Of a stretch of DNA of 64,000 nt, positions 5,586 to 31,862 are shown piece after piece (the first letter of the stretch is position 1; each line of letters begins with the position of its first letter). This DNA is from an uncultured Mycoplasmatota bacterium. Lineage in GTDB: Bacteria; Bacillota_I; Bacilli_A; RF39; UBA660. Position numbers and translations under genes: made by a program. The stretch spans positions 4,778-68,777 of the forward strand of contig CAMSCJ010000010.1 of the NCBI GenBank assembly GCA_947056845.1. The letters run 5' to 3'. The notes under the pieces were generated by a model. It had not been told where the DNA came from. It did not search any database and was given only the letters and a program-made list of their open reading frames with translations.

Positions 5586-8216
5586 ATGGAAAGAAATATA
5601 GAAGGATTAACGGAAGAACAAGTATTAGAAAATAGAAAAAAATATGGTAGTAATAGAATCACTACGTTAAAAAAAGAAACTTTTTTTAGCTTATTTATGG
5701 AATCTTTTAGTGACCCTATGATTAGGATTCTTTTAATCGCACTAGGAATTAAAACAATTTTTTTAATCAAAGACTTTGATTGGTATGAAACAGTGGGAAT
5801 AGTTATTGCTATATTTATTGCCTCTTTTATTTCCTCTATATCAGAATATGGTAGTCAAAAAGCTTTTGATAGACTACAAGCTGAGGCTTCAAAGATAAAA
5901 TGTAAGGTAAAAAGGAATGGTAAAATAAAAGAATTAGATGTTGATGATGTAGTAAAAGATGATATCGTTATTTTACAATCAGGTGATAGGATTCCATCAG
6001 ATGGTATTATTATTAAAGGAAATATTAGTGTTGATGAGTCATCCCTTAATGGTGAGGCAAAGGAACAATACAAATATCCTATAAATACCATGAATGTAAA
6101 ACCTGAGAAAACCAACATGGTTTATCGTGGAACAGTAGTTTATAATGGTGAGGCCACTATGATAACCACTAATGTTGGAGATAAAACTTTTTATGGAACA
6201 ATTGCTAAAGAGTTACAAGAAAAACAACCGGAAAGTCCAATGAAGATACGTCTTAGAAATTTGGCCAAAATTATTAGTAAAATAGGTTATGTATGTGCAT
6301 TCTTGGTTGCGTTTTCCTATCTTTTTTCAGTCATTATTATTCATAATAACTTTAATTTAGATGCGATTAAACATACTATTACTAATTTTCCATTAATGTC
6401 TGGATATATTTTATATGCCCTAACTTTAATGGTAACAGTGATTGTTGTTGCTGTTCCTGAAGGTTTACCTATGATGATTACATTAGTCCTATCATCTAAC
6501 ATGAAGAGAATGTTAAAGGATAATGTTTTGGTTAGAAAATTAGTTGGAATAGAAACAGCAGGGAGTTTAAATATTTTATTCTCTGATAAAACGGGAACCT
6601 TAACTAAAGGCAAATTGGAAGTGGTTGGAATTTTAAGTGGGACAGGAAAGATGTATTACAATAAAATAGAATTAGAAAAAAAACCTGAATATTATGAATT
6701 AGTTAGAATCTCACTTCTTTATAATAATGCTAGTTCTTATGATGAAACGACTAGAAAGATTGTTGGCGGTAATATTACGGATCGTGCGTTATTAGAGTTT
6801 ATTAATGATAATAGAGAAAAAAACTTAAAAATATTATCTAATATACCTTTTGATAGCAAAAATAAATATTCTATTACTGTTATTGATAATAAAGGTAAAA
6901 TGAATTTAATTAAAGGAGCCCCGGAAAAAATTTTACCTTATTGTCGTTTTTATTATACTGAAACTGGCGAAAGAAAAATGCTTTTTGATAAAAACAAGTT
7001 AACAGTTAATATACAGAATATCACCAAAAGAGGAATTAGAGTGTTAACTATTGCAACTTCCAATTCCAATGAGCCATCAAAATTTTCAGATCTGACATTA
7101 GTAGGATTTATTTACATTAAAGATGAAGTCAGAAAAGAGGCAATTGAAGGTGTAAAACTTGTTAAAGAGGCACATATACAGACTGTTATGATAACAGGTG
7201 ATAACAAAGATACAGCCTATGCGATTGGAGAAGAAGTTGGATTAATTGATAAAAATTCAGTCATTTTAACCTCAAATGAATTAAATGAAAAAACAGATGA
7301 AGAATTAAAACAAATTTTACCTAAATTACGAATTGTAGCTAGAGCTTTACCACAAGATAAAAGTAGGCTAGTTAGAATTTCTCAAGAACTTGGTTTAGTT
7401 GTTGGAATGACAGGCGATGGAGTAAACGATGCTCCAGCTTTAAAAAAAGCTGATGTAGGCTTTGCCATGGGAAGTGGTACGGAAGTAGCTAAGGAAGCTA
7501 GCGATATAGTAATTTTAGATGATAATTTTAAATCTATTACGAAAGCTATTTTATTTGGTAGGACAATATTTAAAAGCATTAGAAAATTTATTATTTTTCA
7601 ACTTACAGTTAATTTATGTGCTGTATCATTATCAATAATTGGACCATTTATTGGTGTTGATACTCCTGTGACCGTTATTCAAATGTTATGGATTAATATG
7701 GTTATGGATACATTAGCCGGTCTAGCATTTTCTTTTGAACCACCGCTATTAGAATATATGACGGAGGTGCCAAAAAGAAAAGATGAACCAATAATTAATA
7801 AATATATGGCAGGAGAAATATTGTTTACAGGTTTATATTCATCTATTTTGTGTGTTATATTTTTAAAATTGCCTTTTATAAAGAATTTCTTTAGAATGGA
7901 TAATAATAATTTATATTTAATGACTGCTTTTTTTGGTTTATTCATTTTTATGACAATCTTTAATAGTTTTAATGCTAGAACCAATCGATTAAATTTACTA
8001 GCTAACATTTTAAAGAATAAAATCTTTCTTTTAATTATTTTATTTATTTTAGTTGTTCAAATCATTTTAATCTATTATGGTGGCAATTTGTTTAGAACTG
8101 CGGGTTTAACATATACAGAATTCTTGATGATGATTTTATTATCGGCTACTGTTATTCCAGTTGATTGGTTACGTAAATGTTACCTTAGAAGGCAAGGAAA
8201 TATTGGTGGAGTTTAG
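5586..8216 (+). CDS. P-type cation-transporting ATPase, Ca2+ (PMCA/YloB-like)
   Basis: DKTGTLT phosphorylation motif, TGDN, GDGVNDAPALKKADVG, PEGLP in TM4, about 10 TM helices. ATG 5586 lies 6 nt after GGGAGGA. Confidence 0.9.
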   Translation: MERNIEGLTEEQVLENRKKYGSNRITTLKKETFFSLFMESFSDPMIRILLIALGIKTIFLIKDFDWYETVGIVIAIFIASFISSISEYGSQKAFDRLQAEASKIKCKVKRNGKIKELDVDDVVKDDIVILQSGDRIPSDGIIIKGNISVDESSLNGEAKEQYKYPINTMNVKPEKTNMVYRGTVVYNGEATMITTNVGDKTFYGTIAKELQEKQPESPMKIRLRNLAKIISKIGYVCAFLVAFSYLFSVIIIHNNFNLDAIKHTITNFPLMSGYILYALTLMVTVIVVAVPEGLPMMITLVLSSNMKRMLKDNVLVRKLVGIETAGSLNILFSDKTGTLTKGKLEVVGILSGTGKMYYNKIELEKKPEYYELVRISLLYNNASSYDETTRKIVGGNITDRALLEFINDNREKNLKILSNIPFDSKNKYSITVIDNKGKMNLIKGAPEKILPYCRFYYTETGERKMLFDKNKLTVNIQNITKRGIRVLTIATSNSNEPSKFSDLTLVGFIYIKDEVRKEAIEGVKLVKEAHIQTVMITGDNKDTAYAIGEEVGLIDKNSVILTSNELNEKTDEELKQILPKLRIVARALPQDKSRLVRISQELGLVVGMTGDGVNDAPALKKADVGFAMGSGTEVAKEASDIVILDDNFKSITKAILFGRTIFKSIRKFIIFQLTVNLCAVSLSIIGPFIGVDTPVTVIQMLWINMVMDTLAGLAFSFEPPLLEYMTEVPKRKDEPIINKYMAGEILFTGLYSSILCVIFLKLPFIKNFFRMDNNNLYLMTAFFGLFIFMTIFNSFNARTNRLNLLANILKNKIFLLIILFILVVQIILIYYGGNLFRTAGLTYTEFLMMILLSATVIPVDWLRKCYLRRQGNIGGV

Positions 8217-8224
8217 GGTAAAAT

Positions 8225-8250
8225 GCACGAAATGCATTTTTTCGTGCTTG
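8225..8250 (+). terminator. hairpin after the ATPase gene
   Basis: gcacgaaa (8225-8232) pairs with tttcgtgc (8240-8247). Only a short T tail follows. Confidence 0.45.
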
Positions 8251-8258
8251 AAAATCGA

Positions 8259-8287
8259 TTGCAAAAATTGTCAAAATATGGTAATAT
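8259..8287 (+). promoter_or_regulatory. sigma-A-type promoter candidate for agrA-agrC
   Basis: TTGCAA - 17 nt - TAATAT, about 60 nt upstream of ATG 8347. Confidence 0.4.
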
Positions 8288-8346
8288 TTACTAGTATAGG
8301 CCTAGGTTTGCTGGATGCAATTTTTTTATTTAATAGGAGTGATTAT

Positions 8347-9048
8347 ATGATTAATTTTATTGTTTGTGATGATAACAAAAATTTACTAGAAGATGTAGTA
8401 GAGCTTATTAACAAGTTAATGATGAAAAATCGACATGAATATAAGGTTCATGCCTTTACAGATTATAATGAAAAATTCATGAATATAATGAATGAAAAGC
8501 TATCATGTAAAATATATATATTAGATGTTGAGGTACCTAGCCAATCTGGCATTGATATTGCTAGGCAAATAAGGGATAAAGATGTCGATAGTGCTATAAT
8601 TTTCTTAACATTGCATAATGAGGTAGGACCAGTATTATTAAAAGAAGAAATTATGTTTTTGACGTTTATTTGTAAATTTGATAATGCTAATAGGAGATTA
8701 CAGTCAGCTATTAGCAAAGCTTTAGAACTTGTTGGCAAAAAGTTATCTGTTAGATTTGAAGATCAAGGTGCTATTTATACATTACCAGTAAAAGATATTA
8801 TTTATATTTTAACTGATACGATGGAAAGAAAAATTGTTATTAAAACAGATTATGCGCAATTTAGAGTATCTAAAACGCTTGTAGAAATGGAAAAACTATT
8901 ACCACATCAATTCAAACATTCACATAGAGCATGTATTGTTAATGTCGACCGAATTAGAATGATTGATAAAAAAAATAACACCATTATTTTTGATAATGAT
9001 GATATGGTTGATTTATTATCGAAAAGTTGTAGAAAGGAATTGGTGTAA
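8347..9048 (+). CDS. agrA: LytTR-family response regulator (AgrA-like)
   Basis: Receiver domain (FIVCDDN..., ILDVEVP) plus C-terminal LytTR-type DNA-binding domain (...FKHSHRACIVNVDRI). ATG 8347 follows AGGAG. The upstream part of ORF 8161..9048 overlaps the ATPase gene and its terminator. Confidence 0.85.
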   Translation: MINFIVCDDNKNLLEDVVELINKLMMKNRHEYKVHAFTDYNEKFMNIMNEKLSCKIYILDVEVPSQSGIDIARQIRDKDVDSAIIFLTLHNEVGPVLLKEEIMFLTFICKFDNANRRLQSAISKALELVGKKLSVRFEDQGAIYTLPVKDIIYILTDTMERKIVIKTDYAQFRVSKTLVEMEKLLPHQFKHSHRACIVNVDRIRMIDKKNNTIIFDNDDMVDLLSKSCRKELV

Positions 9049-10344
9049 GTGAAAATATTATTTGATTTTTTAGGTGCACTAATTTTATCTATATCAACCA
9101 CTTATGCTATTGGTAAAATAATGGATTTTTCTATTAAAAAAGTAGGTATTGTTAGATATATAATTGCGATATTAACACTATCAGTTTATTTAATTATCAG
9201 TTATCATAGTACTATGATTTTTTTAAGATACCTAATGTTCATTTTTGTAATACCACTAATTCTTATATCTATTATGAAAAGACAATTTAAAGAATCTTTT
9301 GTGACTAGCTTTTTGGCCTTTATTTTGATAGCCATATCTGAATTATTATTTGCTATATTTATATCATTTATACTAAAAACGGATATCGAAAACTTTTATG
9401 GAGTTTTGATTGGAAATATTGGCGTAGCTATAATTTTACTTATTTTAATAAAAATACCTAAATTATTGGATTTATTAAAAAGTTGGCTTGAAAAAATATC
9501 GACTTCTAAAAGGTATTATTTAATTGCTTTAATTGTTACTCTATGCTTTTCTATTAGTATAGTTGTATATATAAATTATTTTGATACAACTACTAGATTA
9601 AGATTTATTCTAAGTCTTATTGTAATTATAACTTATACAGTAATAACACTATTTTTATTTAATGAGAAGAATAATAGTAGCAAAATTCAGTATGAGTATG
9701 AGAATGCCTTAAATAACTTAAATGAATATGAAAAAATGCTTGATTTTCAGAAAGTCGCTAATCATGAAAATAAAAATCAACTATTAGTAATTAAAGGAAT
9801 GATAGATAAAAAAGATTCAAAAGTTAATGAATATATTGATAGTATAGTATTAGAAAAAAGTGAGGATAATGAAGATTTTTTATATCGCACTAATATTATT
9901 CCATCTGGCGGATTGCGAGGATTAGTTTATTACAAATTATTATCAATGAGAGAAAGAGGTATTAATATTAATTTAGATATTTCTAGCAAAGTACGAAAAA
10001 TAGAATTAGAAAAAATGGGAGTAGGATTAAATAAAGATTTATGTAAAATTATGGGCGTCATATTAGATAATGCTAAGAAAGCTGTAGAAGACTTAGAACA
10101 AAAAAATATCGATATAGCAATGAATTATATCGATAATGAGTTCGTTATAATAGTAGCAAATAATTTTGAAGGCGACTTAGATTTAAATGAAATGGATAAT
10201 ATTGGCTATACAACTAAAGGCAGTGGTCATGGATATGGCTTAGCTCTAATGAAACAGTTAATTGATAAAAATAGTCGTTTATATAACAAAAAAAATATAT
10301 ATGGACAGAAGTTTGTTCAAAAAGTAATATTGGATTTAAAATAA
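9049..10344 (+). CDS. agrC: AgrC-like (HPK10) sensor histidine kinase
   Basis: About 6 N-terminal TM helices. C-terminal GHKL ATPase with NAKKA (N-box) and GSGHGYGLAL (G-box). GTG start abuts the agrA stop. Confidence 0.8.
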   Translation: MKILFDFLGALILSISTTYAIGKIMDFSIKKVGIVRYIIAILTLSVYLIISYHSTMIFLRYLMFIFVIPLILISIMKRQFKESFVTSFLAFILIAISELLFAIFISFILKTDIENFYGVLIGNIGVAIILLILIKIPKLLDLLKSWLEKISTSKRYYLIALIVTLCFSISIVVYINYFDTTTRLRFILSLIVIITYTVITLFLFNEKNNSSKIQYEYENALNNLNEYEKMLDFQKVANHENKNQLLVIKGMIDKKDSKVNEYIDSIVLEKSEDNEDFLYRTNIIPSGGLRGLVYYKLLSMRERGININLDISSKVRKIELEKMGVGLNKDLCKIMGVILDNAKKAVEDLEQKNIDIAMNYIDNEFVIIVANNFEGDLDLNEMDNIGYTTKGSGHGYGLALMKQLIDKNSRLYNKKNIYGQKFVQKVILDLK

Positions 10345-10370
10345 AAAAACTGCAAAAATGCAGTTTTTTT
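10343..10370. terminator. bidirectional terminator shared by agrC and agrD
   Basis: A7-actgca-aaaa-tgcagt-T7. It overlaps the agrD stop codon (10369-10371). Confidence 0.75.
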
Positions 10371-10488
10371 ATTTTATAAGTGCTTTTGGGCATTCTGGTT
10401 CATCGATTACAAAAACGAAACAAGCACTACTTCCTAAAGAGGCAACAAATCCAGCAATTGAAGCGATTATTGAAGTTATAAATGACAT
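10369..10488 (-). CDS. agrD: AgrD-like autoinducing-peptide precursor (39 aa), absent from the ORF track
   Basis: Hand translation of the minus strand gives MSFITSIIASIAGFVASLGSSACFVFVIDEPECPKALIK. GGAGGAGG lies about 8 nt upstream. It sits 51 nt downstream of agrB. The layout is an amphipathic leader, a Cys+4 core and an acidic DEPE.PK.L tail, as in staphylococcal and clostridial AgrD. Confidence 0.75.
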   Translation of the reverse strand: MSFITSIIASIAGFVASLGSSACFVFVIDEPECPKALIK

Positions 10489-10539
10489 ATTAAATACCTC
10501 CTCCCTTTTATTCTATGTTTAAATAAAATTTAAACCATA

Positions 10540-11133
10540 TTATAAATATTTCTTATAATTGTTATAAGGCAATTTGAAAATGCGGTAAACGACAGGGGAT
10601 ATCATAAAACATTGCAAAATAATTGCTACTAATAAAGAATTAGCCCAAAAACTATCTTTAATAAATAAAGAACAAATAATCATACAAAGCGCTACCATAG
10701 TTGATATAACTTTTAAAAATAATCTTCTTTTTTTATTAATAATTGGTCTTTTATATGTATCTGCTGGTGCATTCTTGATAATGAATATCAAACCTATTAA
10801 TCCAATTGCTATTTTTAGATAATTTGGGATTTGAACCATTTTGCATACAACTGGAAGAACTATAAAAATTAATAATGATGATACTAAGCAAATCCAACTT
10901 TTTGTTGCATGTAGACCAAATGATGGTATTCTTATAAAATTATAGCATAAAAGAAAAATCAATGTTTCATGTATTAAACCTAATAAATATGAAACGGTTA
11001 AAATAACAATCATTTTTGTTATAAGAATATAGATTGATTCTAAACCATATTTTATAATTTCCAATCTTTCATCATCAAAATTATTATATTTTTGGATAAT
11101 TCCTAGTTGTTTATTTATGATAAAATCTCTCAT
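10540..11133 (-). CDS. agrB: AgrB-family AIP-processing membrane peptidase
   Basis: Polytopic 197 aa protein. FGLHATKSWIC has His and Cys 7 residues apart, like the catalytic H77/C84 spacing of S. aureus AgrB. Confidence 0.8.
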   Translation of the reverse strand: MRDFIINKQLGIIQKYNNFDDERLEIIKYGLESIYILITKMIVILTVSYLLGLIHETLIFLLCYNFIRIPSFGLHATKSWICLVSSLLIFIVLPVVCKMVQIPNYLKIAIGLIGLIFIIKNAPADTYKRPIINKKRRLFLKVISTMVALCMIICSLFIKDSFWANSLLVAIILQCFMISPVVYRIFKLPYNNYKKYL

Positions 11134-15281: not shown

Positions 15282-16388
15282 ATGAGAGAAGATATTGAAA
15301 ACATTTATTCAAGAAAGGATGGAAGATTTGAAATTAGATACCATTATGGATATAAAGAAGATGGTACATCTAATTATAAATCTGTATATGGTAGTAGCGA
15401 AAAAGAGGTTATAGAAAATTACAATCAAAAAATTGAAAGGTTAATTAGTGAAAATGATTTATTGATATTTGACAAGTCATATATTGGTTATGATATTTAT
15501 ACATGGCTGAATAATTCGAAAATAAAAAATAAGAGATCAACTAATTCTAATTATCAATATACTTTAAATGCGAGATTAATTCCAAAGTTTGCAAAAGTTA
15601 AAAAGAAAGCATTATCTTTAGAATTGATAAATAAATTTACGACAGATTTATTAGCTGAAGGCTTAGCGCCAAAAAGTATAAAAGATATATTAATAATTCT
15701 ACAACAAATACTAAAAAATGGAGGAACAGATATAAAAATTCCAATGCCTAAAGTACCTAAAGTTGAAATTCAAATATTAAAAAAAGAAGATCAAGCAAAA
15801 TTAGAAAGTAAATTACTTCAAAAGTTAGATACAACTACTTTTGGAATATACTTTTGTCTTTATACTGGTTTGCGTATTGGTGAACTATGTGCTTTGCAAT
15901 GGAAGAATATTGATATAGAAAATAAAAAAATATATGTTAATAAAACGCTTGTGAGAATACAAAATCCAGATAAGGATTCTAAAAAGAAAACTATCATTAT
16001 AATAGATGAACCAAAGTCAACGTCATCAATTAGAGAAATACCTATACCACATTTTTTACTATCCATTATAATTCAACTTGCTAAAGATATTACCCCTGAT
16101 ACATTTTTAATATCTGGCACTTCTAAATTTATTGAGACAAGAACCTATTTTAATAGGTATAAAAAAATTTTAAAAAAAACTAATTTAGACACCTATAACT
16201 TTCATGCTTTAAGGCATACATTTGCTACTAGATGTATAGAGAATGGCTTTGATCCTAAAACTTTAAGCGAGATATTGGGACACTCTAGTGTGAAAATCAC
16301 ATTAGAAAGATATGTACATCCTAGTTATGAAAATAAGGTTATTATGATGAATAATTTAAAACCAATGCTTAATGAGAATATTTCATAA
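15282..16388 (+). CDS. tyrosine-type site-specific recombinase/integrase
   Basis: LYTGLRIGELCAL (catalytic R), HALRHTFATRCIENG (HxxR), GHSSVKITLERYVH (H...Y). N-terminal SAM-like domain. RBS AAGGAG. Confidence 0.85.
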   Translation: MREDIENIYSRKDGRFEIRYHYGYKEDGTSNYKSVYGSSEKEVIENYNQKIERLISENDLLIFDKSYIGYDIYTWLNNSKIKNKRSTNSNYQYTLNARLIPKFAKVKKKALSLELINKFTTDLLAEGLAPKSIKDILIILQQILKNGGTDIKIPMPKVPKVEIQILKKEDQAKLESKLLQKLDTTTFGIYFCLYTGLRIGELCALQWKNIDIENKKIYVNKTLVRIQNPDKDSKKKTIIIIDEPKSTSSIREIPIPHFLLSIIIQLAKDITPDTFLISGTSKFIETRTYFNRYKKILKKTNLDTYNFHALRHTFATRCIENGFDPKTLSEILGHSSVKITLERYVHPSYENKVIMMNNLKPMLNENIS

Positions 16389-16633
16389 TTTTATATATGA
16401 TATGGTCTTTTTTTCTTTTTATAAGAGATAAAATGCCTATGCTAATTATTCTTAAAGTTTATAACTTTGTGATTTTTTGCATAAAAATTGCTATTATAAT
16501 AACATTTTTTCCCAAAATAAGCAATATTTAAACATTATTTTTTTGTCAGAATTATTAAATCTATATATTTTTACTAAACCATAACACAACTATCTATAAG
16601 TTATAAACTTGTAGAAAGATTGAGGAGAAAAAC

Positions 16634-18163
16634 ATGAAGTATGATGATTTATTCATAGAGTCAGGTAAACTTCCTAAACCATTATCAAAGAAAGAAATAT
16701 ATTCTTATTTAGAACAATATAAGTGTGGAAATTTAAAAGCTAGGGAGCAAGTAATAATTCATAATATTAGATTGGTATTGCATCAAGTAAATAAAAAGTT
16801 TGCAAATACACCTTATGATAAAAAAGAATTAGTCTCAATAGGAATAGTAGGTTTAATAAAAGGTGTAGATACATTCGATACTGATAAAAATTTTGAATTT
16901 GCTACATATGCAATAAGATGTATCGATAATGAAATATTAATGTTTCTAAGAAAAGGGAAAAAATCTGCTTTTGACCAAAGTATTAATACTCCAATAGGAA
17001 TAGATAATGATGGAAATGAAAAAAGGATAGAGGATATTTTAGAAGATGAGGCATCAGATTTTGCTTTAGAATATGAAAATCAAATTACTTATAATGAAGT
17101 GAGGGAAATCGTTTATAGTTTACCAGATAGAGATAGAGAAATAGTATTACTTCATTTTGGATTTGTTGATGATCATATATATACACAAAAAGAAATTGCG
17201 GATAAGCTAAAAATCTCTCAGTCGTATGTATCAAGGTTGATAGGAAAAATTGTTGCCAAAATAGGAATACAATTGCAAAAAAGTGGTGTAATGGAAACCG
17301 CTGGTAACCGAACTAAAAATATAAAATTAAATAAATCATCACAAACATCTAATGTTGTGCCTATAATAGATATCCAACCACAAGAAATGTTAGAGAATGT
17401 TAACCAAGATAAGGGTTTTAGAGAAAAATCTAGTATAAATGGAGAAGAAAGGAATTTTAAAAAAATGAAAGGTAAAAAATTACAATCAATATATGAATAC
17501 CTAAAAGGATATACAAGGAAAGAAATAGATATAATGTTAAGCAAATTAACAGAGGAGGAAATGTCTTTAGTAAGATTAAGATATGGTGACAATTTAGATA
17601 ATCCAGTTGCTTCATCAACATGGGGAAAAGAAGAAACAAGAAAATTTTATGGTAGTTTAATCCCTAAGATGAAAAGATTATTATCTAATCCAGAAGGAAA
17701 GAGAAAAAAATATACTAAAAGAACACAAAATATTTCAGGCGCAAATAATCAATCTAGTATTCTTTTATCAGAAGAACCAAAAGTAGAAGAAGTAACTCAA
17801 CCAGAATTGATTTCACAAAAAGTTGAAGATTCAAAAACAATTTTGCCTCAAACAACTTCAGAAATAGAAAAAGATGATTGTTTGAAAATTTTAGAATTAA
17901 TGAGAACACCAAGTTTTGGGGAAATGTTAAAATCATTAACACCAAAAGATGCAATAATAATTTGCTTAAAATTAGGATATGTAGATGGAAAATATTTTAC
18001 AACAGAGTCAGTAGCAGGTTTTTTAGGAATAGAAACAAGTGAAGTCATAGAAACTACAAAAAAGGTATTATTAGTTTATAAAGAAAATATAAATCAATTT
18101 ATTGATAAAGCTGTTGAAGTTGCAACAGGCTCTTCTTTAGTTTTAAAAAAGAAGGAAAATTAA
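16634..18163 (+). CDS. SigE/SigK-like sigma-70 family factor with a ~290 aa C-terminal extension
   Basis: Residues about 10-215 look like a complete sporulation-type sigma: LPKPLSKKE, HNIRLV, SIGIVGLIKGVDTFD, FATYAIRCIDNEILMFLR, region 4 HTH QKEIADKLKISQSYVSRLIGKI. The extension carries two further region-4-like segments: LTEEEMSLVRLRYGDNLDNP and LTPKDAIIICLKLGY...ESVAGFLGIETSEVIETTKKVL. Confidence 0.8.
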   Translation: MKYDDLFIESGKLPKPLSKKEIYSYLEQYKCGNLKAREQVIIHNIRLVLHQVNKKFANTPYDKKELVSIGIVGLIKGVDTFDTDKNFEFATYAIRCIDNEILMFLRKGKKSAFDQSINTPIGIDNDGNEKRIEDILEDEASDFALEYENQITYNEVREIVYSLPDRDREIVLLHFGFVDDHIYTQKEIADKLKISQSYVSRLIGKIVAKIGIQLQKSGVMETAGNRTKNIKLNKSSQTSNVVPIIDIQPQEMLENVNQDKGFREKSSINGEERNFKKMKGKKLQSIYEYLKGYTRKEIDIMLSKLTEEEMSLVRLRYGDNLDNPVASSTWGKEETRKFYGSLIPKMKRLLSNPEGKRKKYTKRTQNISGANNQSSILLSEEPKVEEVTQPELISQKVEDSKTILPQTTSEIEKDDCLKILELMRTPSFGEMLKSLTPKDAIIICLKLGYVDGKYFTTESVAGFLGIETSEVIETTKKVLLVYKENINQFIDKAVEVATGSSLVLKKKEN

Positions 18164-18376
18164 GTAATACCATATTTATAAAAAATAATAATATTGGTCT
18201 GAATTTAATTATATAATTGATACTAATTATTAAACAATAAAAAATCACAAAGTAAATCACTTGTAGAAAAAAATGATTAAAAAATCATGTTTTTACTGTT
18301 AATTTAGTAAAACATAAGAAAATTATTGATTTTTTTAATAAAAAAGTGTATTATAAATGTCAAATTTGGTGTAAAA

Positions 18377-18407
18377 AAAATCACAAAGTGATTTACTTTG
18401 TGATTTT
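18377..18407. promoter_or_regulatory. perfect 13-bp inverted repeat (operator or 5'-UTR hairpin) 14 nt upstream of the TPR operon start
   Basis: aaaatcacaaagt-gattt-actttgtgatttt. The same 13-mer recurs at 18241-18253 and, reverse-complemented, at 16464-16476 upstream of the sigma gene. Confidence 0.45.
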
Positions 18408-18421
18408 ACTAAAGGAGGTTA

Positions 18422-19426
18422 ATGATGGAGATTATATCAAGTGAAAAAGATGCCTACTTTAAAGGAATAGAATTTTGGAATAATAATGATTATAGAAATG
18501 CTCGTTATTATTTTGAGATGGCTTATAAATATCATGGCCAATTTGGAGATTTATCCTTATCTCGATTAATTCAAATAGATTTAAGAGAAGGAAAATATGC
18601 AAATGCAAGAAGTCTTTTAAAGAATAATCAAAGTAATGTTATAGAATTTAAACAAGTATATGGATTATTAGAAAATATAGAAAATAATTTTGAGAGAAGT
18701 AAAACCTATTACAGCCAATGTATGGCCGATCCATATATGCAAAATAAATCATTACTCGCTATATCAAAGTTATATATTCAGACAGGGGATAATGAGATTG
18801 CAAGAAAAATGTTAGAAACTCTACAATTAAATAGGGAGTTTTATACTCAATCTACAATTGGTTTAGTATGCTTAAATATACTTGAGCAGAATTATAAAGA
18901 CGCTTATAAATATTTAAAATCGATAAATTTTAAGCTCTTGACACCAAAATTGCTTCATCATTATAAAATACTAGAAATGTATTTGCTTAAAAATTTAGGG
19001 AAATTAAGACAATCAGATAATAGTTTTGATCCAGTAAAAGATTATATGATATATCGTTTGTTTGACGATAGTGAAGACTTGCTTTTGAGTCATATAAGTA
19101 AACACATGAATCAAAGGGAAAAATCTACGAATGGGTGTTTTTTCAAATATATTGATTTAAAAAAGTTATTAATAGATGCTAGAGAAAAAATAGAGAACAT
19201 GAACTCAAATCATTTTGAAGTTTCAGATATGTATAGATTTAGATTAGACACACCAATTGGTTTTAAGGGTGATAAAGAAACTTGTGATTTATGTGTTGTT
19301 ACTATGATTGGAACAAAAGACATTTTAACAATGTATCCTGTTTTATTATCTGATGAATTTGATAGAGAAGGTATGCTTGAAAGTAAAGACCTTTTACTAA
19401 AAAAACAAGGAGGAGTTAGAAAATGA
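18422..19426 (+). CDS. TPR-repeat protein with an uncharacterised C-terminal domain
   Basis: N-terminal TPR-like helices (GIEFWNNNDYRNARYYFEMAYKY...). C-terminal ~130 aa has no motif I recognise. RBS AAGGAGG. The stop overlaps the next start (ATGA). Confidence 0.55.
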   Translation: MMEIISSEKDAYFKGIEFWNNNDYRNARYYFEMAYKYHGQFGDLSLSRLIQIDLREGKYANARSLLKNNQSNVIEFKQVYGLLENIENNFERSKTYYSQCMADPYMQNKSLLAISKLYIQTGDNEIARKMLETLQLNREFYTQSTIGLVCLNILEQNYKDAYKYLKSINFKLLTPKLLHHYKILEMYLLKNLGKLRQSDNSFDPVKDYMIYRLFDDSEDLLLSHISKHMNQREKSTNGCFFKYIDLKKLLIDAREKIENMNSNHFEVSDMYRFRLDTPIGFKGDKETCDLCVVTMIGTKDILTMYPVLLSDEFDREGMLESKDLLLKKQGGVRK

Positions 19427-21993
19427 TAAATGAGGAAAATTTAAATAAGCTGTATAATGGGTTAATAGATGAAAAAGAATTGACTACAAAAGAATTAAAT
19501 AGTTATGGCTTTAATTCAAGGGATTTAGCTGATCTAATTAATGATGGAGTTATTGAAAGAATTAAAAGGGGCTATTACTCATTTTTATCCATAGATAATT
19601 TGTTTTATTATGGGAAACAACTTATTGCTTTAAAAGAATATGATAAAGCAACTGCGTGTTTTGAGAAATGTTATGAATTAAATCCAAATCATCTAGGTGC
19701 TTGTTTTCAATTGTTTTTAAGAGCTGTTCAATCAAGAGACTATTCAAAGGCATTTGCATATTTTGAACATTTTTATAATAGTGATAATGAATATTATAAT
19801 AATGATAGTAATTTTTATTTATATTTACTCAGTATGATAACAGAAATTCCTGAACATCATAGAGAATATGCTAAATACTTAAAATTAGATGATATTAAAA
19901 TTGATTTTAATGATAAGCGCTTTGAAGACCCATATTCCCAAAATAAAGTTAGAATATCTGCATTAAATCAAAAGTTTACCTTAGCTTATAAACAACTTAC
20001 TGAGTTAATTAAACAACATAGAAGATTTAGTGTTCAAGATATTATTGTAAGGACACTATTATCTCAGGCAATAGAAGTACAAAATGATATAAAAAAGAGT
20101 ATAATTAATTTAGTTACAGAAAAGAAATATGATGAAATAATATTTCGTTTAGAGGAAATACAAAACCAGCGTCATTTAAGTGTTGCAGATGAATGTATAT
20201 TATTTCTAGCAAGAGAAATTTCTAAATTAGAAGAAACAGGAATTATTCCAAAAAAAGAAGTGGTTTCTACACATAAATTATTTGAAGCTATTAATGGCAA
20301 GAATTTTGAACTTGCTTTATCTTTAAGTAAAGAATATATCGAAAGAAATAATATAAATCCAAGTGATAATGCCATGGTTATGTTGCTTAAAGATATAACA
20401 GAATTAATGGAAATGAAAACTAATAAATCTAATGAACAACCAGTAGCAATACCACCCACGAAGAAAGTTGAAACCGTAGCTACTAGAGAAGAAATAAATC
20501 CTGAGACAAATACTGCTTTTACGAAAAGTAATATAACTTTTGCTACGGTTATTGGTTATTTAATAAAACAAGATTTTGACAATTCATTTAGAGCATTAAG
20601 AGAATATTTGAATGATATTAATAAGAGTCAATATGAATTTTTAATTATCGATTTAATTAAAATAAGTTTAATAGAACAAGATATGGCTTTTTCAAAGCCA
20701 ATGATAGCTTTAACTTATGTAAGTAGAGAAAATCTTAATTTTGATATTTCTGAATATATTAAAAATTTTTATGAATCATTAGCACAAAATAAATTTTTAG
20801 AGGCAAGAATATATTTAGATATTATTTCAAATTCTAATAAACTAGGACAAGATTGTATTCTTACTGAGAATTTAGAGCAAGTATTAAATATTACCGAAAA
20901 AATGCTGAATTATAAAAGAAATAATGATGTTTTAGATAGAGTAGATGCCTCTATAAAAACATTAGAGCAAGAACCAATAATTCAAATACCTATTCAACAA
21001 AAAATGGTTGAAACTTCTGCACAACAGCCAATTTCGAGTACATCTATATATAGTGATGATGAAACCATTGAACTATATGAAATTATAGATTCTACTGTTT
21101 TCCCAGTTACACCAAAAAAAGCAAATTTAGAAACACCAAATAACGCTTATAATGATTCTGAATTTATCAAGGGAAAGTTAAATGAATTATATAAAAAGGG
21201 GATTATATTATTGAAACCAATGAATGATAGTAGAAGACAGAAAATACACGATATAGTAAAAGAAATTCCAGATATAGTATCATTTAGTATTGAGACTGAT
21301 GTAGGTAGGCAAATAGTTTTAAGATTTAAGCCATTTATAGATGAATATGTTGATTTATCAACCATCGCTAAGGAAGGAAATAGGGCCTATAGTGAAGGAG
21401 AATATGGTAATTGTATAGGAGCATATAGAGATATATTAAAATTTGGTACACCAAAAGCATGGGTATATGCCAAATTGGGATTAGCTTATATGAAAAAATT
21501 TAATAAAGAAACAGCAATCGATTACCTAACAGTTGCTACTGCACTTTCAAAAGAAGAACAAACTGATTTTGATTTTACTGATTTAATTGCATCTTTAAAA
21601 GGTTTAATAGATCCTGAAGATAAAAAACCAAGAGTTAGAATGACAACTAAAGATTTTGATAATGATACTGAAAAATATTATGGAATAGAAAATATGTATG
21701 AATTAGCTGAATTAATAGTTTCTGGTATTAGTATTGATGATGCATGTGTATCTTTAGGATTAAATGATGAGCAAAAAGCAATAGCAACTTTAGTTTTGGC
21801 AAGAGAAAGTTATACACAAGGAAACTATGCAATGGGTGACCAATATTTAAAAAAAGTAGAAAGAATAAAAAATAAAACTAAATTTGTAATTTCACTATCT
21901 GAGGAAATAAGAAGAAATAAAAAATTCTATAAAAACAGAGTTGATGAAAATCATAAATCGTTAGTTTTAACTTTAAATCAAAAAAATAATTAG
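19423..21993 (+). CDS. large multi-domain protein: N-terminal wHTH (AbiEi-like), TPR arrays, internal R3H-like segment
   Basis: N-terminus LNSYGFNSRDLADLINDGVIERIKRGYYSF. TPR-like repeats (YDKATACFEKCYELNPNH...). LKPMNDSRRQKIHDIVKEIPDIVSFSIETDVGRQIVLRF contains R-x3-H (codons at about 21235-21249). No P-loop seen. Confidence 0.55.
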   Translation: MINEENLNKLYNGLIDEKELTTKELNSYGFNSRDLADLINDGVIERIKRGYYSFLSIDNLFYYGKQLIALKEYDKATACFEKCYELNPNHLGACFQLFLRAVQSRDYSKAFAYFEHFYNSDNEYYNNDSNFYLYLLSMITEIPEHHREYAKYLKLDDIKIDFNDKRFEDPYSQNKVRISALNQKFTLAYKQLTELIKQHRRFSVQDIIVRTLLSQAIEVQNDIKKSIINLVTEKKYDEIIFRLEEIQNQRHLSVADECILFLAREISKLEETGIIPKKEVVSTHKLFEAINGKNFELALSLSKEYIERNNINPSDNAMVMLLKDITELMEMKTNKSNEQPVAIPPTKKVETVATREEINPETNTAFTKSNITFATVIGYLIKQDFDNSFRALREYLNDINKSQYEFLIIDLIKISLIEQDMAFSKPMIALTYVSRENLNFDISEYIKNFYESLAQNKFLEARIYLDIISNSNKLGQDCILTENLEQVLNITEKMLNYKRNNDVLDRVDASIKTLEQEPIIQIPIQQKMVETSAQQPISSTSIYSDDETIELYEIIDSTVFPVTPKKANLETPNNAYNDSEFIKGKLNELYKKGIILLKPMNDSRRQKIHDIVKEIPDIVSFSIETDVGRQIVLRFKPFIDEYVDLSTIAKEGNRAYSEGEYGNCIGAYRDILKFGTPKAWVYAKLGLAYMKKFNKETAIDYLTVATALSKEEQTDFDFTDLIASLKGLIDPEDKKPRVRMTTKDFDNDTEKYYGIENMYELAELIVSGISIDDACVSLGLNDEQKAIATLVLARESYTQGNYAMGDQYLKKVERIKNKTKFVISLSEEIRRNKKFYKNRVDENHKSLVLTLNQKNN

Positions 21994-28945: not shown

Positions 28946-29022
28946 GGGCGATTAGCTCAGTTGGTTAGAGCACCTGCCTTACAAGCAGGGGGTCATAGGT
29001 TCGAGTCCTATATCGCCCACCA
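28946..29022 (+). tRNA. tRNA-Val (anticodon TAC)
   Basis: Cloverleaf folded by eye: acceptor gggcgat/atcgccc, anticodon loop cttacaa, T-arm atagg-ttcgagt-cctat, encoded CCA. Confidence 0.9.
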
Positions 29023-29026
29023 TTAT

Positions 29027-29102
<76 letters not shown>

Positions 29103-29110
29103 TTTTTTAT

Positions 29111-29194
29111 GGAGGGATAGCGAAGTGGTCAAACGCGGCAGACTGTAAATCTGTTCCTTCGGGTTCGATGGTTCAAATCCATCTCCCTCCACCA
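29111..29194 (+). tRNA. tRNA-Tyr (anticodon GTA)
   Basis: Acceptor ggaggga/tccctcc, loop ctgtaaa, long variable arm, encoded CCA. Confidence 0.9.
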
Positions 29195-29208
29195 TCTGTT
29201 TGTGTTAT

Positions 29209-29284
29209 TGCCTCGTAGCCAAGCGGTAAGGCACCACACTTTGACTGTGGCATTGCGCTAGTTCGAATCTAGCCGAGGCAGCCA
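29209..29284 (+). tRNA. tRNA-Gln (anticodon TTG)
   Basis: Acceptor tgcctcg/cgaggca, anticodon stem ccaca/tgtgg with loop ctttgac, T-arm gctag-ttcgaat-ctagc, encoded CCA. Confidence 0.85.
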
Positions 29285-29295
29285 TTTATTTTTAT

Positions 29296-29371
29296 GTCCC
29301 GTTAGCTCAGCAGGTAGAGCATTTGACTTTTAATCAAAGGGTCGGCGATTCGAGTTCGCCACGGGACACCA
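29296..29371 (+). tRNA. tRNA-Lys (anticodon TTT)
   Basis: Acceptor gtcccgt/acgggac, loop cttttaa, T-arm ggcga-ttcgagt-tcgcc, encoded CCA. Confidence 0.9.
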
Positions 29372-29733: not shown

Positions 29734-30969
29734 TTAATGCTTTACTTTAATTTTTTTCGTTTTTTTTAAAATCCTTTTAAGTATTAATAAACTAATAAAT
29801 AAAATAATAATTATTACGGGATATATTAATTTTGTTTGTATTAAAAAACATATTAAACTAAATTTGACATTAGTATTAAGATAAACATCAATGGTATCCA
29901 TTAACTGATCATTATATATAATATCAACAGACCCCAATTTCTCACCTAAAACATTCTTATGAGATATAACATTAATTCCATTATATTTATATTCAATATT
30001 TTTAGCATCAAATGAATTATCCAAAAACTTAGTAATTGATATTGGTGAATTTATTACATAATTTTTTTCTTTAGAATAATTAATTTTTATAGTTGCTATA
30101 TAATCATTTGTATTAATTAAATTTTTATAACTATAGTTTTCATCAAAATAGCTATATATTTTTATCGCATCTAATAATTGCCTAGGGGTATTTCCATGAT
30201 AATCAGCTCCAGCTGTAACTAATAAATAATTAACCCCATTATAATTAGCAATACTTGACATACAAAGTCCAGCTTCATCGGTATAACCAGTTTTTGAGCC
30301 TTGAATATGAGAGACATCAATAGTATAATTATTTGATATTTTTTTTAAAGTACTACTAAATTTTAAATTATTAGTTGTAGTATATTCTCTTGTTGTATAT
30401 ATTTCCTTAAAAGTATCATTTTTAAGGGCATAAATTAATAATGTAGCTATATCTTGAACTGTTGAATAATGCCCATTAGCTTCTAAACCAGTTGTATTGA
30501 CGAAATTGGTATTAGATAAATTTAATTCTTTAGCCTTGGCATTCATTAATTTAACAAAATCTTCTTCACTTCCAGCAATATTTATGGCAAGGGCTCTGGT
30601 GGCATCAGCTCCAGATGGTAACATTGCTCCCATTAGTAAATCCTTATATGAAACATTTTCACCATATTTAAAGCCAGCTACTGATGCTTGTGCCTCAACT
30701 AAACCAGAAAAAACATCTTTTCCCAATGTTACTTTGGCATCAAGATTTTCAATATTTTCAATAGCAACAATGCAGGCCATAATTTTAGTTAAACTAGCAA
30801 TAGATGTTTTTTCATTAGCATTATCTTCATACAATATTTCATTTGTATCCATATTGTATAAAATCGCGTATTTTGAATCAATATCTAAATTTTTGGCATA
30901 AATGTTGTTTAAATTGAATAAAAATAAGATAGAAATAATTAATATTTTAATTAAAAAAAGTTTTTTCAT
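29734..30969 (-). CDS. D-alanyl-D-alanine carboxypeptidase (S11, PBP5/DacB/DacF-like)
   Basis: SIASLTKIM (SxxK) and SKTGYT (KTG), signal peptide, C-terminal membrane anchor. ATG 30969 preferred over GTG 30978. Confidence 0.85.
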   Translation of the reverse strand: MKKLFLIKILIISILFLFNLNNIYAKNLDIDSKYAILYNMDTNEILYEDNANEKTSIASLTKIMACIVAIENIENLDAKVTLGKDVFSGLVEAQASVAGFKYGENVSYKDLLMGAMLPSGADATRALAINIAGSEEDFVKLMNAKAKELNLSNTNFVNTTGLEANGHYSTVQDIATLLIYALKNDTFKEIYTTREYTTTNNLKFSSTLKKISNNYTIDVSHIQGSKTGYTDEAGLCMSSIANYNGVNYLLVTAGADYHGNTPRQLLDAIKIYSYFDENYSYKNLINTNDYIATIKINYSKEKNYVINSPISITKFLDNSFDAKNIEYKYNGINVISHKNVLGEKLGSVDIIYNDQLMDTIDVYLNTNVKFSLICFLIQTKLIYPVIIIILFISLLILKRILKKTKKIKVKH

Positions 30970-31068
30970 ATATAACACATCCTATTGTATAAATTATAAC
31001 ATAAACTCATTAAATTTAATTGAAATTATTATTATTTCGTAAAAAAGTAAAAAAAAATAAAAAAATTG

Positions 31069-31157: not shown

Positions 31158-31246
31158 GCCTGAGTGGCGAAATTGGTAGACGCACAGGACTTAAAATCCT
31201 GCGGGAGTCAAATCCCGTGCCGGTTCAAGTCCGGCCTTAGGCACCA
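31158..31246 (+). tRNA. tRNA-Leu (anticodon TAA)
   Basis: Class II tRNA with long variable arm, loop cttaaaa, encoded CCA. Confidence 0.9.
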
Positions 31247-31254
31247 TCTTTTTT

Positions 31255-31345
31255 GGAGAAATACCCAAGTCTGGTTGAAGGGACTGGTCTTGAAAACCAG
31301 GAGGTCGGCGACGGCGCGGGGGTTCGAATCCCTCTTTCTCCGCCA
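31255..31345 (+). tRNA. tRNA-Ser (anticodon TGA)
   Basis: Class II tRNA, acceptor ggagaaa/tttctcc, loop cttgaaa, encoded CCA. Confidence 0.9.
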
Positions 31346-31359
31346 TAAAATTATAACAT

Positions 31360-31436
<77 letters not shown>

Positions 31437-31437
31437 T

Positions 31438-31513
31438 GGTTCCGTAGTGTAGCGGTTATCACGTCTGCCTGTCACGCAGAAGATCGCGAGTTCAATTCTC
31501 GTCGGAACCGCCA
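31438..31513 (+). tRNA. tRNA-Asp (anticodon GTC)
   Basis: Acceptor ggttccg/cggaacc, loop ctgtcac, encoded CCA. Confidence 0.9.
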
Positions 31514-31521
31514 TTTATTTT

Positions 31522-31597
31522 GGCTCTATAGCTCAGTCGGCAGAGCACAAGACTGAAAATCTTGGTGTCGGTGGTTCAATTCCACCTGGAGCCACCA
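31522..31597 (+). tRNA. tRNA-Phe (anticodon GAA)
   Basis: Loop ctgaaaa, T-arm ggtgg-ttcaatt-ccacc, encoded CCA. Confidence 0.9.
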
Positions 31598-31621
31598 TTT
31601 ATAAATTACAAATAACTAAGT

Positions 31622-31698
31622 GCGCTCGTAGATCAATTGGATAGATCGTTTGACTACGGATCAAAAGGCTATGGGTTCGACTCCTATCGGGCGCACCA
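31622..31698 (+). tRNA. tRNA-Arg (anticodon ACG)
   Basis: Acceptor gcgctcg/cgggcgc, anticodon stem tttga/tcaaa with loop ctacgga, encoded CCA. Confidence 0.9.
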
Positions 31699-31701
31699 TT
31701 T

Positions 31702-31778
31702 CGGGAAATAGCACAACTTGGTAGTGCACTTGGTTTGGGACCAAGGGGTTGCAGGTTCAAATCCTGTTTTCCCGACCA
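31702..31778 (+). tRNA. tRNA-Pro (anticodon TGG)
   Basis: Acceptor cgggaaa/tttcccg, loop tttggga, encoded CCA. Confidence 0.9.
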
Positions 31779-31786
31779 TCTAATAT

Positions 31787-31862
31787 GGGGAATTAGCTCA
31801 GCTGGGAGAGCGCCACGTTTGCACCGTGGAGGTCAGGAGTTCGATCCTCCTATTCTCCACCA
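31787..31862 (+). tRNA. tRNA-Ala (anticodon TGC)
   Basis: G3:U70 identity pair (ggggaat/attctcc), loop tttgcac, encoded CCA. Confidence 0.9.

Follow-up and report, generated by a model that had tools for sequence, protein, structure and literature searches.

Control of bacterial sigma factors usually rests with separate anti-sigma proteins or pro-sequences, and some extracytoplasmic function (ECF) groups use fused sensor domains. For SigE and SigK, which act in the mother cell during sporulation of the Bacillota, curated models exist (NF006158/TIGR02835 and NF004471/TIGR02846, respectively). ECF41, ECF42 and ECF56 proteins carry C-terminal SnoaL-like or tetratricopeptide repeat (TPR) extensions believed to modulate their own activity (PMC4598750, PMC7826278, PMC7730460), and PhyR, which mimics a sigma factor in the general stress response of Alphaproteobacteria, uses sigma-like domains as a decoy (PMC4598750). 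Sporulation-type sigma factors encoded by Bacillus phages are documented (PMC9429907). Here we analysed a 64,000-nucleotide stretch (the window) of contig CAMSCJ010000010.1 from an uncultured Mycoplasmatota bacterium, which contains a gene for a 509-residue sigma factor at 16634..18163 (+). Its core aligns end to end with SigE and SigK over residues 7-216; unlike these proteins, it continues into a C-terminal cassette of about 290 residues. We place the core in the SigE/SigK clade as a new member; the cassette, which consists of modules derived from sigma region 4 (sigma-4) in the order (A)n-B, is undescribed as far as we found.

The gene is composed of the following features, which are supported by homologues, profile searches and the predicted local distance difference test (pLDDT) of structural models.

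16634..18163, + strand: complete gene for a tailed sigma factor of the SigE/SigK clade, 509 residues (open reading frame, full-length homologues, upstream ribosome-binding site)
16652..17281, + strand: sigma core, residues ~7-216, without a pro-sequence, comprising regions 2.1-2.4, 3 (short) and 4 (NCBIfam, Pfam, pLDDT 80-95)
17300..17473, + strand: linker 1, predicted disordered, residues ~223-280, differing in length and sequence among homologues (pLDDT below 50 over 223-280)
17480..17698, + strand: module A, residues ~283-355, a small helical module (pLDDT, hhalign, Pfam)
17699..17869, + strand: linker 2, residues ~356-412, rich in K, E, Q and S, predicted disordered and variable among homologues (pLDDT below 50 over 360-411)
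17870..18127, + strand: module B, residues ~413-498, a complete but acidic domain like sigma region 4 (hhalign, hidden Markov model (HMM), Protein Data Bank (PDB) profile, Foldseek)

A Shine-Dalgarno sequence, GAGGAG, is located at 16622-16627, 7 nt from the ATG. The translation contains every motif quoted in the earlier note on this DNA (LPKPLSKKE, HNIRLV, FATYAIRCIDNEILMFLR, ISQSYVSRLIGKI, LTEEEMSLVRLRYGDNLDNP and LTPKDAIIICLKLGYVDGKYFTTESVAGFLGIETSEVIETTKKVL). That note had also reported that the frame runs on for about 290 residues past the core and had raised the question of a missed stop. A search of 5.8 billion proteins revealed more than 400 relatives, the best 120 of which were mostly 440-560 residues long with a query coverage of 98-100% and an identity of 40-82%; the sigma-tail junction was aligned without a break in 95 homologues. 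The frame is therefore not the product of a missed stop or a frameshift, because the sigma-plus-tail architecture is kept in hundreds of independent assemblies. Alternatively, errors of assembly or sequencing, or a pseudo-fusion that recently joined a sigma gene to a separate A-B gene, might have produced the long open reading frame, and it is true that standalone A-B genes are known and that split versions occur. Nevertheless, the uninterrupted architecture recurs in assemblies from different samples at 40-82% identity, and the tail, like the core, holds invariant residues; these occur in both modules, and purifying selection on the tail is strong. Conservation across independent assemblies effectively refutes this explanation, which we find scarcely credible. 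The split version, at 328-1669 of locus L013 from one GTDB metagenome-assembled genome (MAG), has the sigma core and the A-B part in different frames and represents either a pseudogene with a frameshift or an error of assembly.

The sigma core bears out the proposal that it is of the SigE/SigK type. Pfam placed Sigma70_r2 at residues 49-109 (45.1 bits, cut-off 24; pLDDT about 90) and Sigma70_r4 at residues 162-209 (50.7 bits, cut-off 24.1); the protein thus has region 2 and, behind regions 2 and 3, region 4, as expected of the sigma-70 family. The NCBIfam models for SigK and SigE both align across residues 7-216, although the scores were below the curated cut-offs for all four: 206.5 bits against 252 for NF004471, 197.4 against 298.65 for TIGR02846, 197.8 against 339 for NF006158 and 182.3 against 348.6 for TIGR02835. 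The protein is accordingly an orthologue of neither SigE nor SigK. Overall, the core was 46.8% identical to the SigE and 40.3% identical to the SigK of the same genome (the host). The difference was larger in regions 2.3-2.4, which read the -10 element: identity there was 76% to host SigE versus 52% to host SigK, and CIDNEILMFLRK is identical with SigE. The region 4.2 motif ISQSYVSR, the recognition motif of a basic region 4 (net charge +3.4, isoelectric point (pI) 9.1), is common to the core and to SigE and SigK.

Alignment showed that the N-terminus of the 509-residue protein coincides with the mature start of host pro-SigE and pro-SigK. Because the protein starts where the mature parts begin, it has no pro-sequence, in agreement with the earlier note. 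SigE is further characterized by linkage to spoIIGA; the host spoIIGA is on another contig (C3:100160-100915), directly upstream of the true sigE.

The host assembly comprises 1.67 Mb in 38 contigs, has a guanine-plus-cytosine (GC) content of 26% and is estimated to be 90% complete. It carries the entire sporulation sigma cascade. The host SigE has a pro-sequence, scores 312.5 and 294.5 bits on the SigE models and falls in the SigE clade, and the host SigK, also with a pro-sequence, scores 316.5 and 305.3 bits, over both cut-offs; SigG (370 bits), a SigF-like and a SigH-like sigma factor, Spo0A and SpoIIGA are further encoded. Since canonical pro-SigE and pro-SigK are present, the 509-residue protein is an additional, third paralogue of the SigE/SigK clade. 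A maximum-likelihood tree of sigma cores placed the tailed proteins on one side of a branch with 99/78 support that was recovered in 100% of the bootstrap trees, apart from both the SigE orthologue clade, which includes host SigE, and host SigK. Three members without a tail (L016, L021 and L042) are nested in the tailed clade, indicating that the tail is dispensable for the core. The related loci come from MAGs of uncultured gut 'Bacilli', 'Tenericutes' or 'Mollicutes'. The 509-residue sigma probably directs RNA polymerase to SigE-like promoters, since its -10-reading segment is nearly the same as that of SigE, and its mature-type start suggests that it would not be subject to processing by SpoIIGA.

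Modelling of the tail with AlphaFold2 from an alignment of 91 sequences yielded two folded helical modules (pLDDT 85-95) with disordered linkers between them. The full-length model, with a predicted template modelling score (pTM) of 0.28, contained the same two modules and showed disorder at residues 223-280 and 360-411. The second of these stretches matches the K/E/Q-rich linker that had been recognized between two tail segments, and linker 1 differs in length by about 50 residues among the homologues. A Pfam scan of the tail alone detected no helix-turn-helix (HTH) family other than a partial Sigma70_r4 and no SnoaL or TPR match. Because Pfam gave only this weak, partial match, profile-profile and structural methods were needed to detect the homology of the tail.

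Four independent lines show module B to be a complete homologue of sigma region 4. An hhalign comparison with the family's own region 4 gave a probability of 96% (E 4.8e-9, 50 columns, 32% identity), as compared with 0.1% for region 2 as a control, and an HMM of module B matches the genuine region 4 of the 509-residue protein, of host RpoD and of host SigE. A tail-only profile built from A-B proteins that lack a sigma core was searched against the PDB; the top 17 matches were all region 4 of sigmaA, with 1tty_A the best (E 4.5e-5), 13 sigmaA entries between E 4.5e-5 and 3e-3, and Thermus sigmaA and 1rio_H at E 2-3e-4. The top 50 Foldseek matches of the tail model were likewise all sigma region 4. 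Isolated sigma-4 domains (1rio_H, 4g6d_A and 6onu_H) were matched with target-normalised template modelling scores of 0.71-0.81 and root-mean-square deviations of 0.9-1.8 A; the Foldseek E-values were modest (0.01-0.09) because the domain is small. For module B, then, the likeness of the tail to region 4 is far beyond chance. Ahead of the region-4-like domain, module B has two additional N-terminal helices, and its last helix is extended by the strongly conserved YKENINxFID, which has no counterpart in sigma-4.

The hydrophobic core of region 4 is kept in module B (L163/L435, I170/I442, L173/L445, G176/G448 and I188/I460 in region 4/module B). Its surface charge is reversed: averaged over 95 family members, region 4 has a net charge of +3.4 and a pI of 9.1, as against -3.7 and 4.9 for module B, and the net charge of the recognition helix falls from +3.8 to -1.3. 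The recognition positions S-Q-S-Y-V-S-R of region 4 become E-x-x-E-V-I-E, with R201 corresponding to E473 and with an invariant E470; in the PDB alignment, TRERIRQ of sigmaA pairs with EEEEVIE of module B. The TRERIRQ segment contains R584, R586, R588 and Q589 of Escherichia coli sigma-70, the residues known to contact the -35 element (Taq sigma-4/-35 DNA structure 1KU7). These four positions, R/R/R/Q, read E/E/I/E in module B, whose recognition helix is not basic. Since the domain is acidic and its -35-contact positions are E/E/I/E, module B is unlikely to be a sigma-4-style reader of DNA, contrary to one of the functions suggested for the tail in the earlier note.

The same note had described both tail units as shaped like region 4, and in this respect module A fell short of module B. 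Module A consists, in order, of a helix and turn resembling region 4.1 (LTEEEMSLVRLRYG), the conserved loop DNLDNPV..W and a basic helix (FYGSLIPKMKRLL). In the model (pLDDT 80-92; helices at 295-303, 307-317 and 332-351), the long conserved loop stands in place of the first HTH helix, with a single long basic helix behind it. Alignment with region 4 by hhalign was limited to the 4.1 helix and the LRYG turn (probability 76%, E 2.3e-5, 33 columns), and likeness to the full domain including the HTH was not found. Matches to Pfam Sigma70_r4 were restricted to model positions 2-21 (E 0.019), the cumulative r4/r4_2 matches of multi-copy A arrays were limited to model positions 1-28, and the PDB profile search gave a weak match to region 4 of Staphylococcus aureus sigmaA (E 0.077). 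The net charge of module A is -0.6 (pI 6.3) overall, with -4.4 in the N-terminal part and +3.75 in the last helix and the stretch that follows it.

When the tail alone served as the query of an exhaustive phmmer search of 1.84 billion representatives (clusters at 50% identity), 1046 proteins were detected at E <= 1e-3, of which 243 reached E <= 1e-30. Classification of the best 150 matches with HMMs for module A, module B and region 2 revealed a clear grammar, sigma-(A)n-B; n ranges from 1 to about 13, and nearly all of these proteins have B in the terminal position. One exception to the single terminal B is a close homologue of 533 residues (P0036), which has module B twice in tandem at its C-terminus. 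The cassette is carried by SigE/SigK-like sigma factors and by complete RpoD-type sigma factors with regions 1.2, 2, 3 and 4 (P0126, P0129, P0132, P0151 and P0165). Modules in 80 GTDB loci were almost always fused to a sigma factor. The suggestion that the tail might exist elsewhere as a separate gene was nevertheless borne out by P0160 (231 residues, locus L087), a standalone A-B gene in the middle of a contig between a nucleotidyltransferase (NTP-transferase) gene and an ArsR-type HTH gene; together with the RpoD-type carriers, it shows that the tail is a separable cassette. Some other short database entries (P0152 and P0235) are truncated gene calls with remnants of region 4.

The host genome encodes two more tailed sigma factors, at C1:72288-74489 (-) and C17:1099-2961 (+), which are RpoD-like and have long N-terminal extensions. 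The first carries a degenerate module A and a module B (HMM E 3e-13), and the second ends in module A (9e-9); a canonical RpoD of 359 residues is encoded at C9:46031-47143. We detected the cassette in 6 of 7 congeners, 7 of the 29 other genera of the family and none of 24 genomes outside it; its range is a single family of small-genome gut Bacilli. Pfam and NCBIfam contain no model of it, and in the literature on sigma-4-like repeats and on C-terminal extensions of group 1 and group 3 sigma factors we found no description of such a cassette.

These features lead us to favour, at somewhat less than even confidence, a tail that serves as a sigma-4-derived handle for protein interaction or regulation, autoinhibition included, and not as a second reader of DNA. 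The 509-residue protein would serve its host, a spore-forming gut member of the Bacilli with a small, very AT-rich genome, as an accessory alternative sigma factor that is made already 'mature'. The (A)n-B cassette, specific to this lineage, would descend from duplicated copies of sigma region 4 that decayed, module B keeping the sigma-4 fold and hydrophobic core while its DNA-contact face turned from basic to acidic, and module A keeping only the 4.1 helix. Tethered by long disordered linkers, such a handle would control the sigma factor post-translationally. Some brake would indeed be expected on a SigE-like sigma, because it is made without a pro-sequence.

This control could take two forms. 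The acidic module B may mask the sigma's own basic region 4, resulting in autoinhibition in cis, or, as a variant, may compete for a docking site of sigma-4, such as the beta-flap tip, or for a regulator directed at sigma-4; autoinhibition by the tail would then stand in for the missing pro-sequence. An acidic look-alike of sigma-4 would be a good match for the basic face of the genuine domain, and action of the tail as an anti-sigma or decoy in cis, as the earlier note had speculated, is a plausible candidate role. Alternatively, the tail may dock a shared partner. The occurrence of the same cassette on RpoD-type and SigE/SigK-type sigma factors suggests a handle that works independently of promoter class. 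We infer the loss of DNA binding by the tail, the promoter class, autoinhibition and docking alike.

Precedents for both halves of the idea of control in cis may be seen in the C-terminal extensions of the ECF41 type and in the PhyR decoy. Like the extended ECF sigma factors, the 509-residue protein has a fused C-terminal extension and neither a separate anti-sigma factor nor a pro-sequence. Unlike them, it has a group 3 core, its best models being those of group 3 sporulation sigma factors and not ECF, and its tail consists of sigma-4-derived modules on disordered linkers with no match to SnoaL or TPR, so that it does not belong to the ECF41/ECF42 type; the modules are, moreover, repeated in variable number and common also to RpoD-type sigma factors. 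PhyR provides a precedent for a sigma-4 look-alike that does not bind DNA, in that its sigma-2-like and sigma-4-like domains no longer act as a sigma factor but as a protein-binding decoy. PhyR, however, has a receiver domain and titrates an anti-sigma factor as a protein in its own right, whereas here the look-alike is fused in cis to the sigma core, and Pfam detected no Response_reg match in the 509-residue protein.

Several observations weigh against a handle of this kind. The pTM of the full-length model is 0.28, and contact of the tail with the core, RNA polymerase or another protein is a proposal only. Module A ends in a basic helix and a basic stretch (+3.75), for which non-specific binding of nucleic acid is still possible. 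Simple autoinhibition offers no obvious explanation for arrays with as many as 13 A modules. Finally, RpoD-type sigma factors, which need no substitute for a pro-sequence, bear the same tail; replacement of a pro-sequence therefore cannot be its general function.

The tail might instead be an extra nucleic-acid-binding arm. The basic helix of module A, K/R-rich linkers and possibly module B would then contact upstream DNA or nascent RNA and add affinity or specificity for promoters where -10-like sequences abound, as in this genome of 26% GC, with more A modules giving a longer reach. Both modules do derive from a DNA-binding domain, the end of module A is positively charged (+3.75), and a copy number of 1-13 resembles that of multivalent DNA binders. 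Extra specificity could also help, given that promoter-like hexamer pairs in this DNA are as common as in shuffled sequence (54 versus 57.5). Yet the surface of module B is acidic, with all four canonical -35-contact positions replaced (E/E/I/E), module A lacks the first HTH helix and is neutral to acidic overall, and the partial r4 was the only HTH family detected in the tail. We consider such an arm unlikely.

Returning to the regulatory handle, a wider version of it can be put forward, although we regard it as doubtful. The (A)n-B cassette might be a portable device for sigma control in one family of spore-forming, genome-reduced gut Bacilli, in which a tethered acidic decoy B masks region 4 or competes for the beta-flap or for a regulator directed at sigma-4, the number of A modules sets reach or valency, and free A-B proteins compete in trans. 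At this locus the cassette would replace proteolysis of a pro-sequence, resulting in SigE-type transcription that is independent of SpoIIGA. If the handle is real, a non-DNA-binding repeat cassette derived from sigma-4, on primary-like and sporulation sigma factors, would represent a different solution to the control of sigma factors. The cassette is common (more than 1000 clusters at 50% identity, with 13 or more A copies in the longest arrays), yet no Pfam or NCBIfam model or description of it was found. Its carriers are uncultured, genome-reduced gut Bacilli with a sporulation cascade, and the cassette may bear on how their sporulation and alternative transcription programmes are wired. A SigE-like paralogue without a pro-sequence offers a simple test case for its function.

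The genes and elements that adjoin the sigma gene are as follows.

15282..16388, + strand: tyrosine recombinase/integrase immediately upstream of the sigma gene (Pfam Phage_integrase 7.8e-28; phrog_1 1.2e-52)
18239..18270, + strand: conserved element containing AAATCACAAAGT, just 3' of the sigma stop codon (repeat family D2; kept in relatives)
18422..21993, + strand: two-gene operon downstream of the sigma gene, encoding a 334-residue TPR protein and an 856-residue protein (Pfam, PADLOC; the open reading frames overlap by 4 nt)

Upstream of the integrase are hpf and secA, with a terminator-like hairpin behind secA. The 856-residue protein (19423-21993) has an N-terminal winged HTH resembling the AbiEi antitoxin (PADLOC AbiEi 4e-7; Pfam AbiEi_4 7e-5), TPRs and a weak R3H domain, a type that binds single-stranded nucleic acid; its architecture is unusual, it belongs to no PHROG or NCBIfam family, and it is translationally coupled to the 334-residue TPR protein. 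A defence system was considered and rejected, PADLOC having yielded only a weak MzaA-like match to the sigma factor and the AbiEi-like winged HTH.

The trio of the sigma factor, the 334-residue protein and the protein of about 855 residues is kept in two loci from other metagenomes (L081 and L083), with an identity of 69-78% for the sigma factor and 76-86% for the TPR proteins. Locus L083 also has a 75%-identical integrase two genes upstream of the trio, in a different chromosomal context. Both flanks of a third locus, L085, whose sigma factor is 64% identical, are syntenic with the window (agr-like genes, hpf, secA, sigma, bPH_3, YutH and S1), and this locus has neither the integrase nor the TPR pair. 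The integrase-sigma-TPR block looks like a small integrative island, or the remnant of one, at a site downstream of secA, because the trio and a related integrase recur elsewhere while L085 is syntenic without the integrase or the TPR pair. The block has the GC content of its surroundings; no flanking att-type direct repeats were found around it, and no tRNA gene adjoins it. The 670-bp spacer between secA and sigma in L085 (7332-8000) contains short broken frames (MINIRKRGKVYGYR..., ...SYSDYLDYWI...) that resemble the N-terminus of an integrase; the resemblance is unconfirmed, as tblastn with the window integrase found no similarity in this spacer.

TPR domains commonly bind helical peptides. 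This, along with the retention of the trio in independent metagenomes, the related integrase near it in L083 and a motif, AATCACAAAGT, that is common to the leaders of the sigma gene and the operon, raises the possibility that the tail docks the two downstream proteins as a dedicated anti-sigma or co-factor pair. The trio would form the self-contained regulatory module of a small integrative island, and the function would be specific to this subclade. The cassette, on the other hand, is far more widespread than the pair. The sigma factor of L085 occupies the same chromosomal slot without it, and none of the neighbours in the window, the TPR pair included, was found in the 80 GTDB loci. The pair has no paralogues and does not accompany the two other tailed sigma factors of the host. 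L085, the 80 loci and these other tailed sigma factors thus rule it out as a partner of the cassette in general, and a dedicated docking function, even in this subclade, seems to us distinctly improbable.

The integrase also bears on a phage setting, which the earlier note had brought up by pointing to phage-encoded homologues. A phage or mobile element might carry the gene, a sporulation-sigma homologue, so as to manipulate sporulation in its host; the tail would then be an add-on specific to the element. A tyrosine integrase directly upstream, an accessory gene with only one orthologue-like copy among seven congeners, and the documented existence of phage-encoded sporulation-type sigma factors (PMC9429907) are in accord with such a reading. 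Without a pro-sequence the protein would, furthermore, escape the SpoIIGA checkpoint of the host; the likeness to the Bacillus phage proteins lies in an extra, non-canonical sporulation-sigma homologue without the activation checkpoint of the host. The surroundings speak otherwise. No phage structural, replication or lysis genes are nearby, and the integrase, the sole phage-type gene there, and the sigma factor are the only proteins with PHROG matches. Among 50,697 phage records, none of the 134 that matched reached 80% coverage or extended beyond the sigma core (about 40-45% identity), and no IMG/VR contig encodes the tail. The missing att-like repeats, the unchanged GC content and the syntenic slot after secA in a related genome without integrase or TPR genes point the same way. 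The 509-residue gene thus differs from the Bacillus phage genes in lying outside a phage and in bearing a tail that phage homologues lack. Phage origin was rejected on these grounds, and we deem an element-borne manipulator of sporulation very improbable.

The AAATCACAAAGT motif just behind the sigma stop codon occurs at the same place in L081, L083 and L085, reading AATCACAAAGTTAATCACTTTGTGATTTTTT in L083. The element is probably a degenerate copy of the hairpin-plus-T-run terminator of the orthologous loci. The 11-mer AATCACAAAGT has six copies in the 1.67-Mb genome, four of them within 2 kb of the sigma gene; the sites in the window are at 16463-16474, 18243-18253 and 18379-18408. One copy overlaps a putative -35 region 5' of the sigma gene, and two form a perfect inverted repeat (AAATCACAAAGT-GATTT-ACTTTGTGATTT) just ahead of the ribosome-binding site of the TPR operon, downstream of a promoter-like site, TTGATT-17-TATTAT, which is conserved in L081. 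The inverted repeat could be an operator for a shared repressor, such as the winged HTH of the 856-residue protein, or a leader hairpin. The sigma-70 promoter scan of this DNA was uninformative, because the DNA is AT-rich and hexamer pairs were no commoner than in shuffled sequence.

Farther upstream, an agr-like quorum-sensing set (8161-11133) precedes hpf and secA and is syntenic with L085.

8161-9048: LytTR response regulator
9049-10344: histidine kinase
10540-11133, - strand: AgrB-like protein

On the other side of the sigma gene, two tRNA clusters, at 28946-29371 (five genes) and 31158-31862 (eight genes), flank an open reading frame of 414 residues at 29734-30978 (-), within a stretch that is locally richer in GC (0.33).

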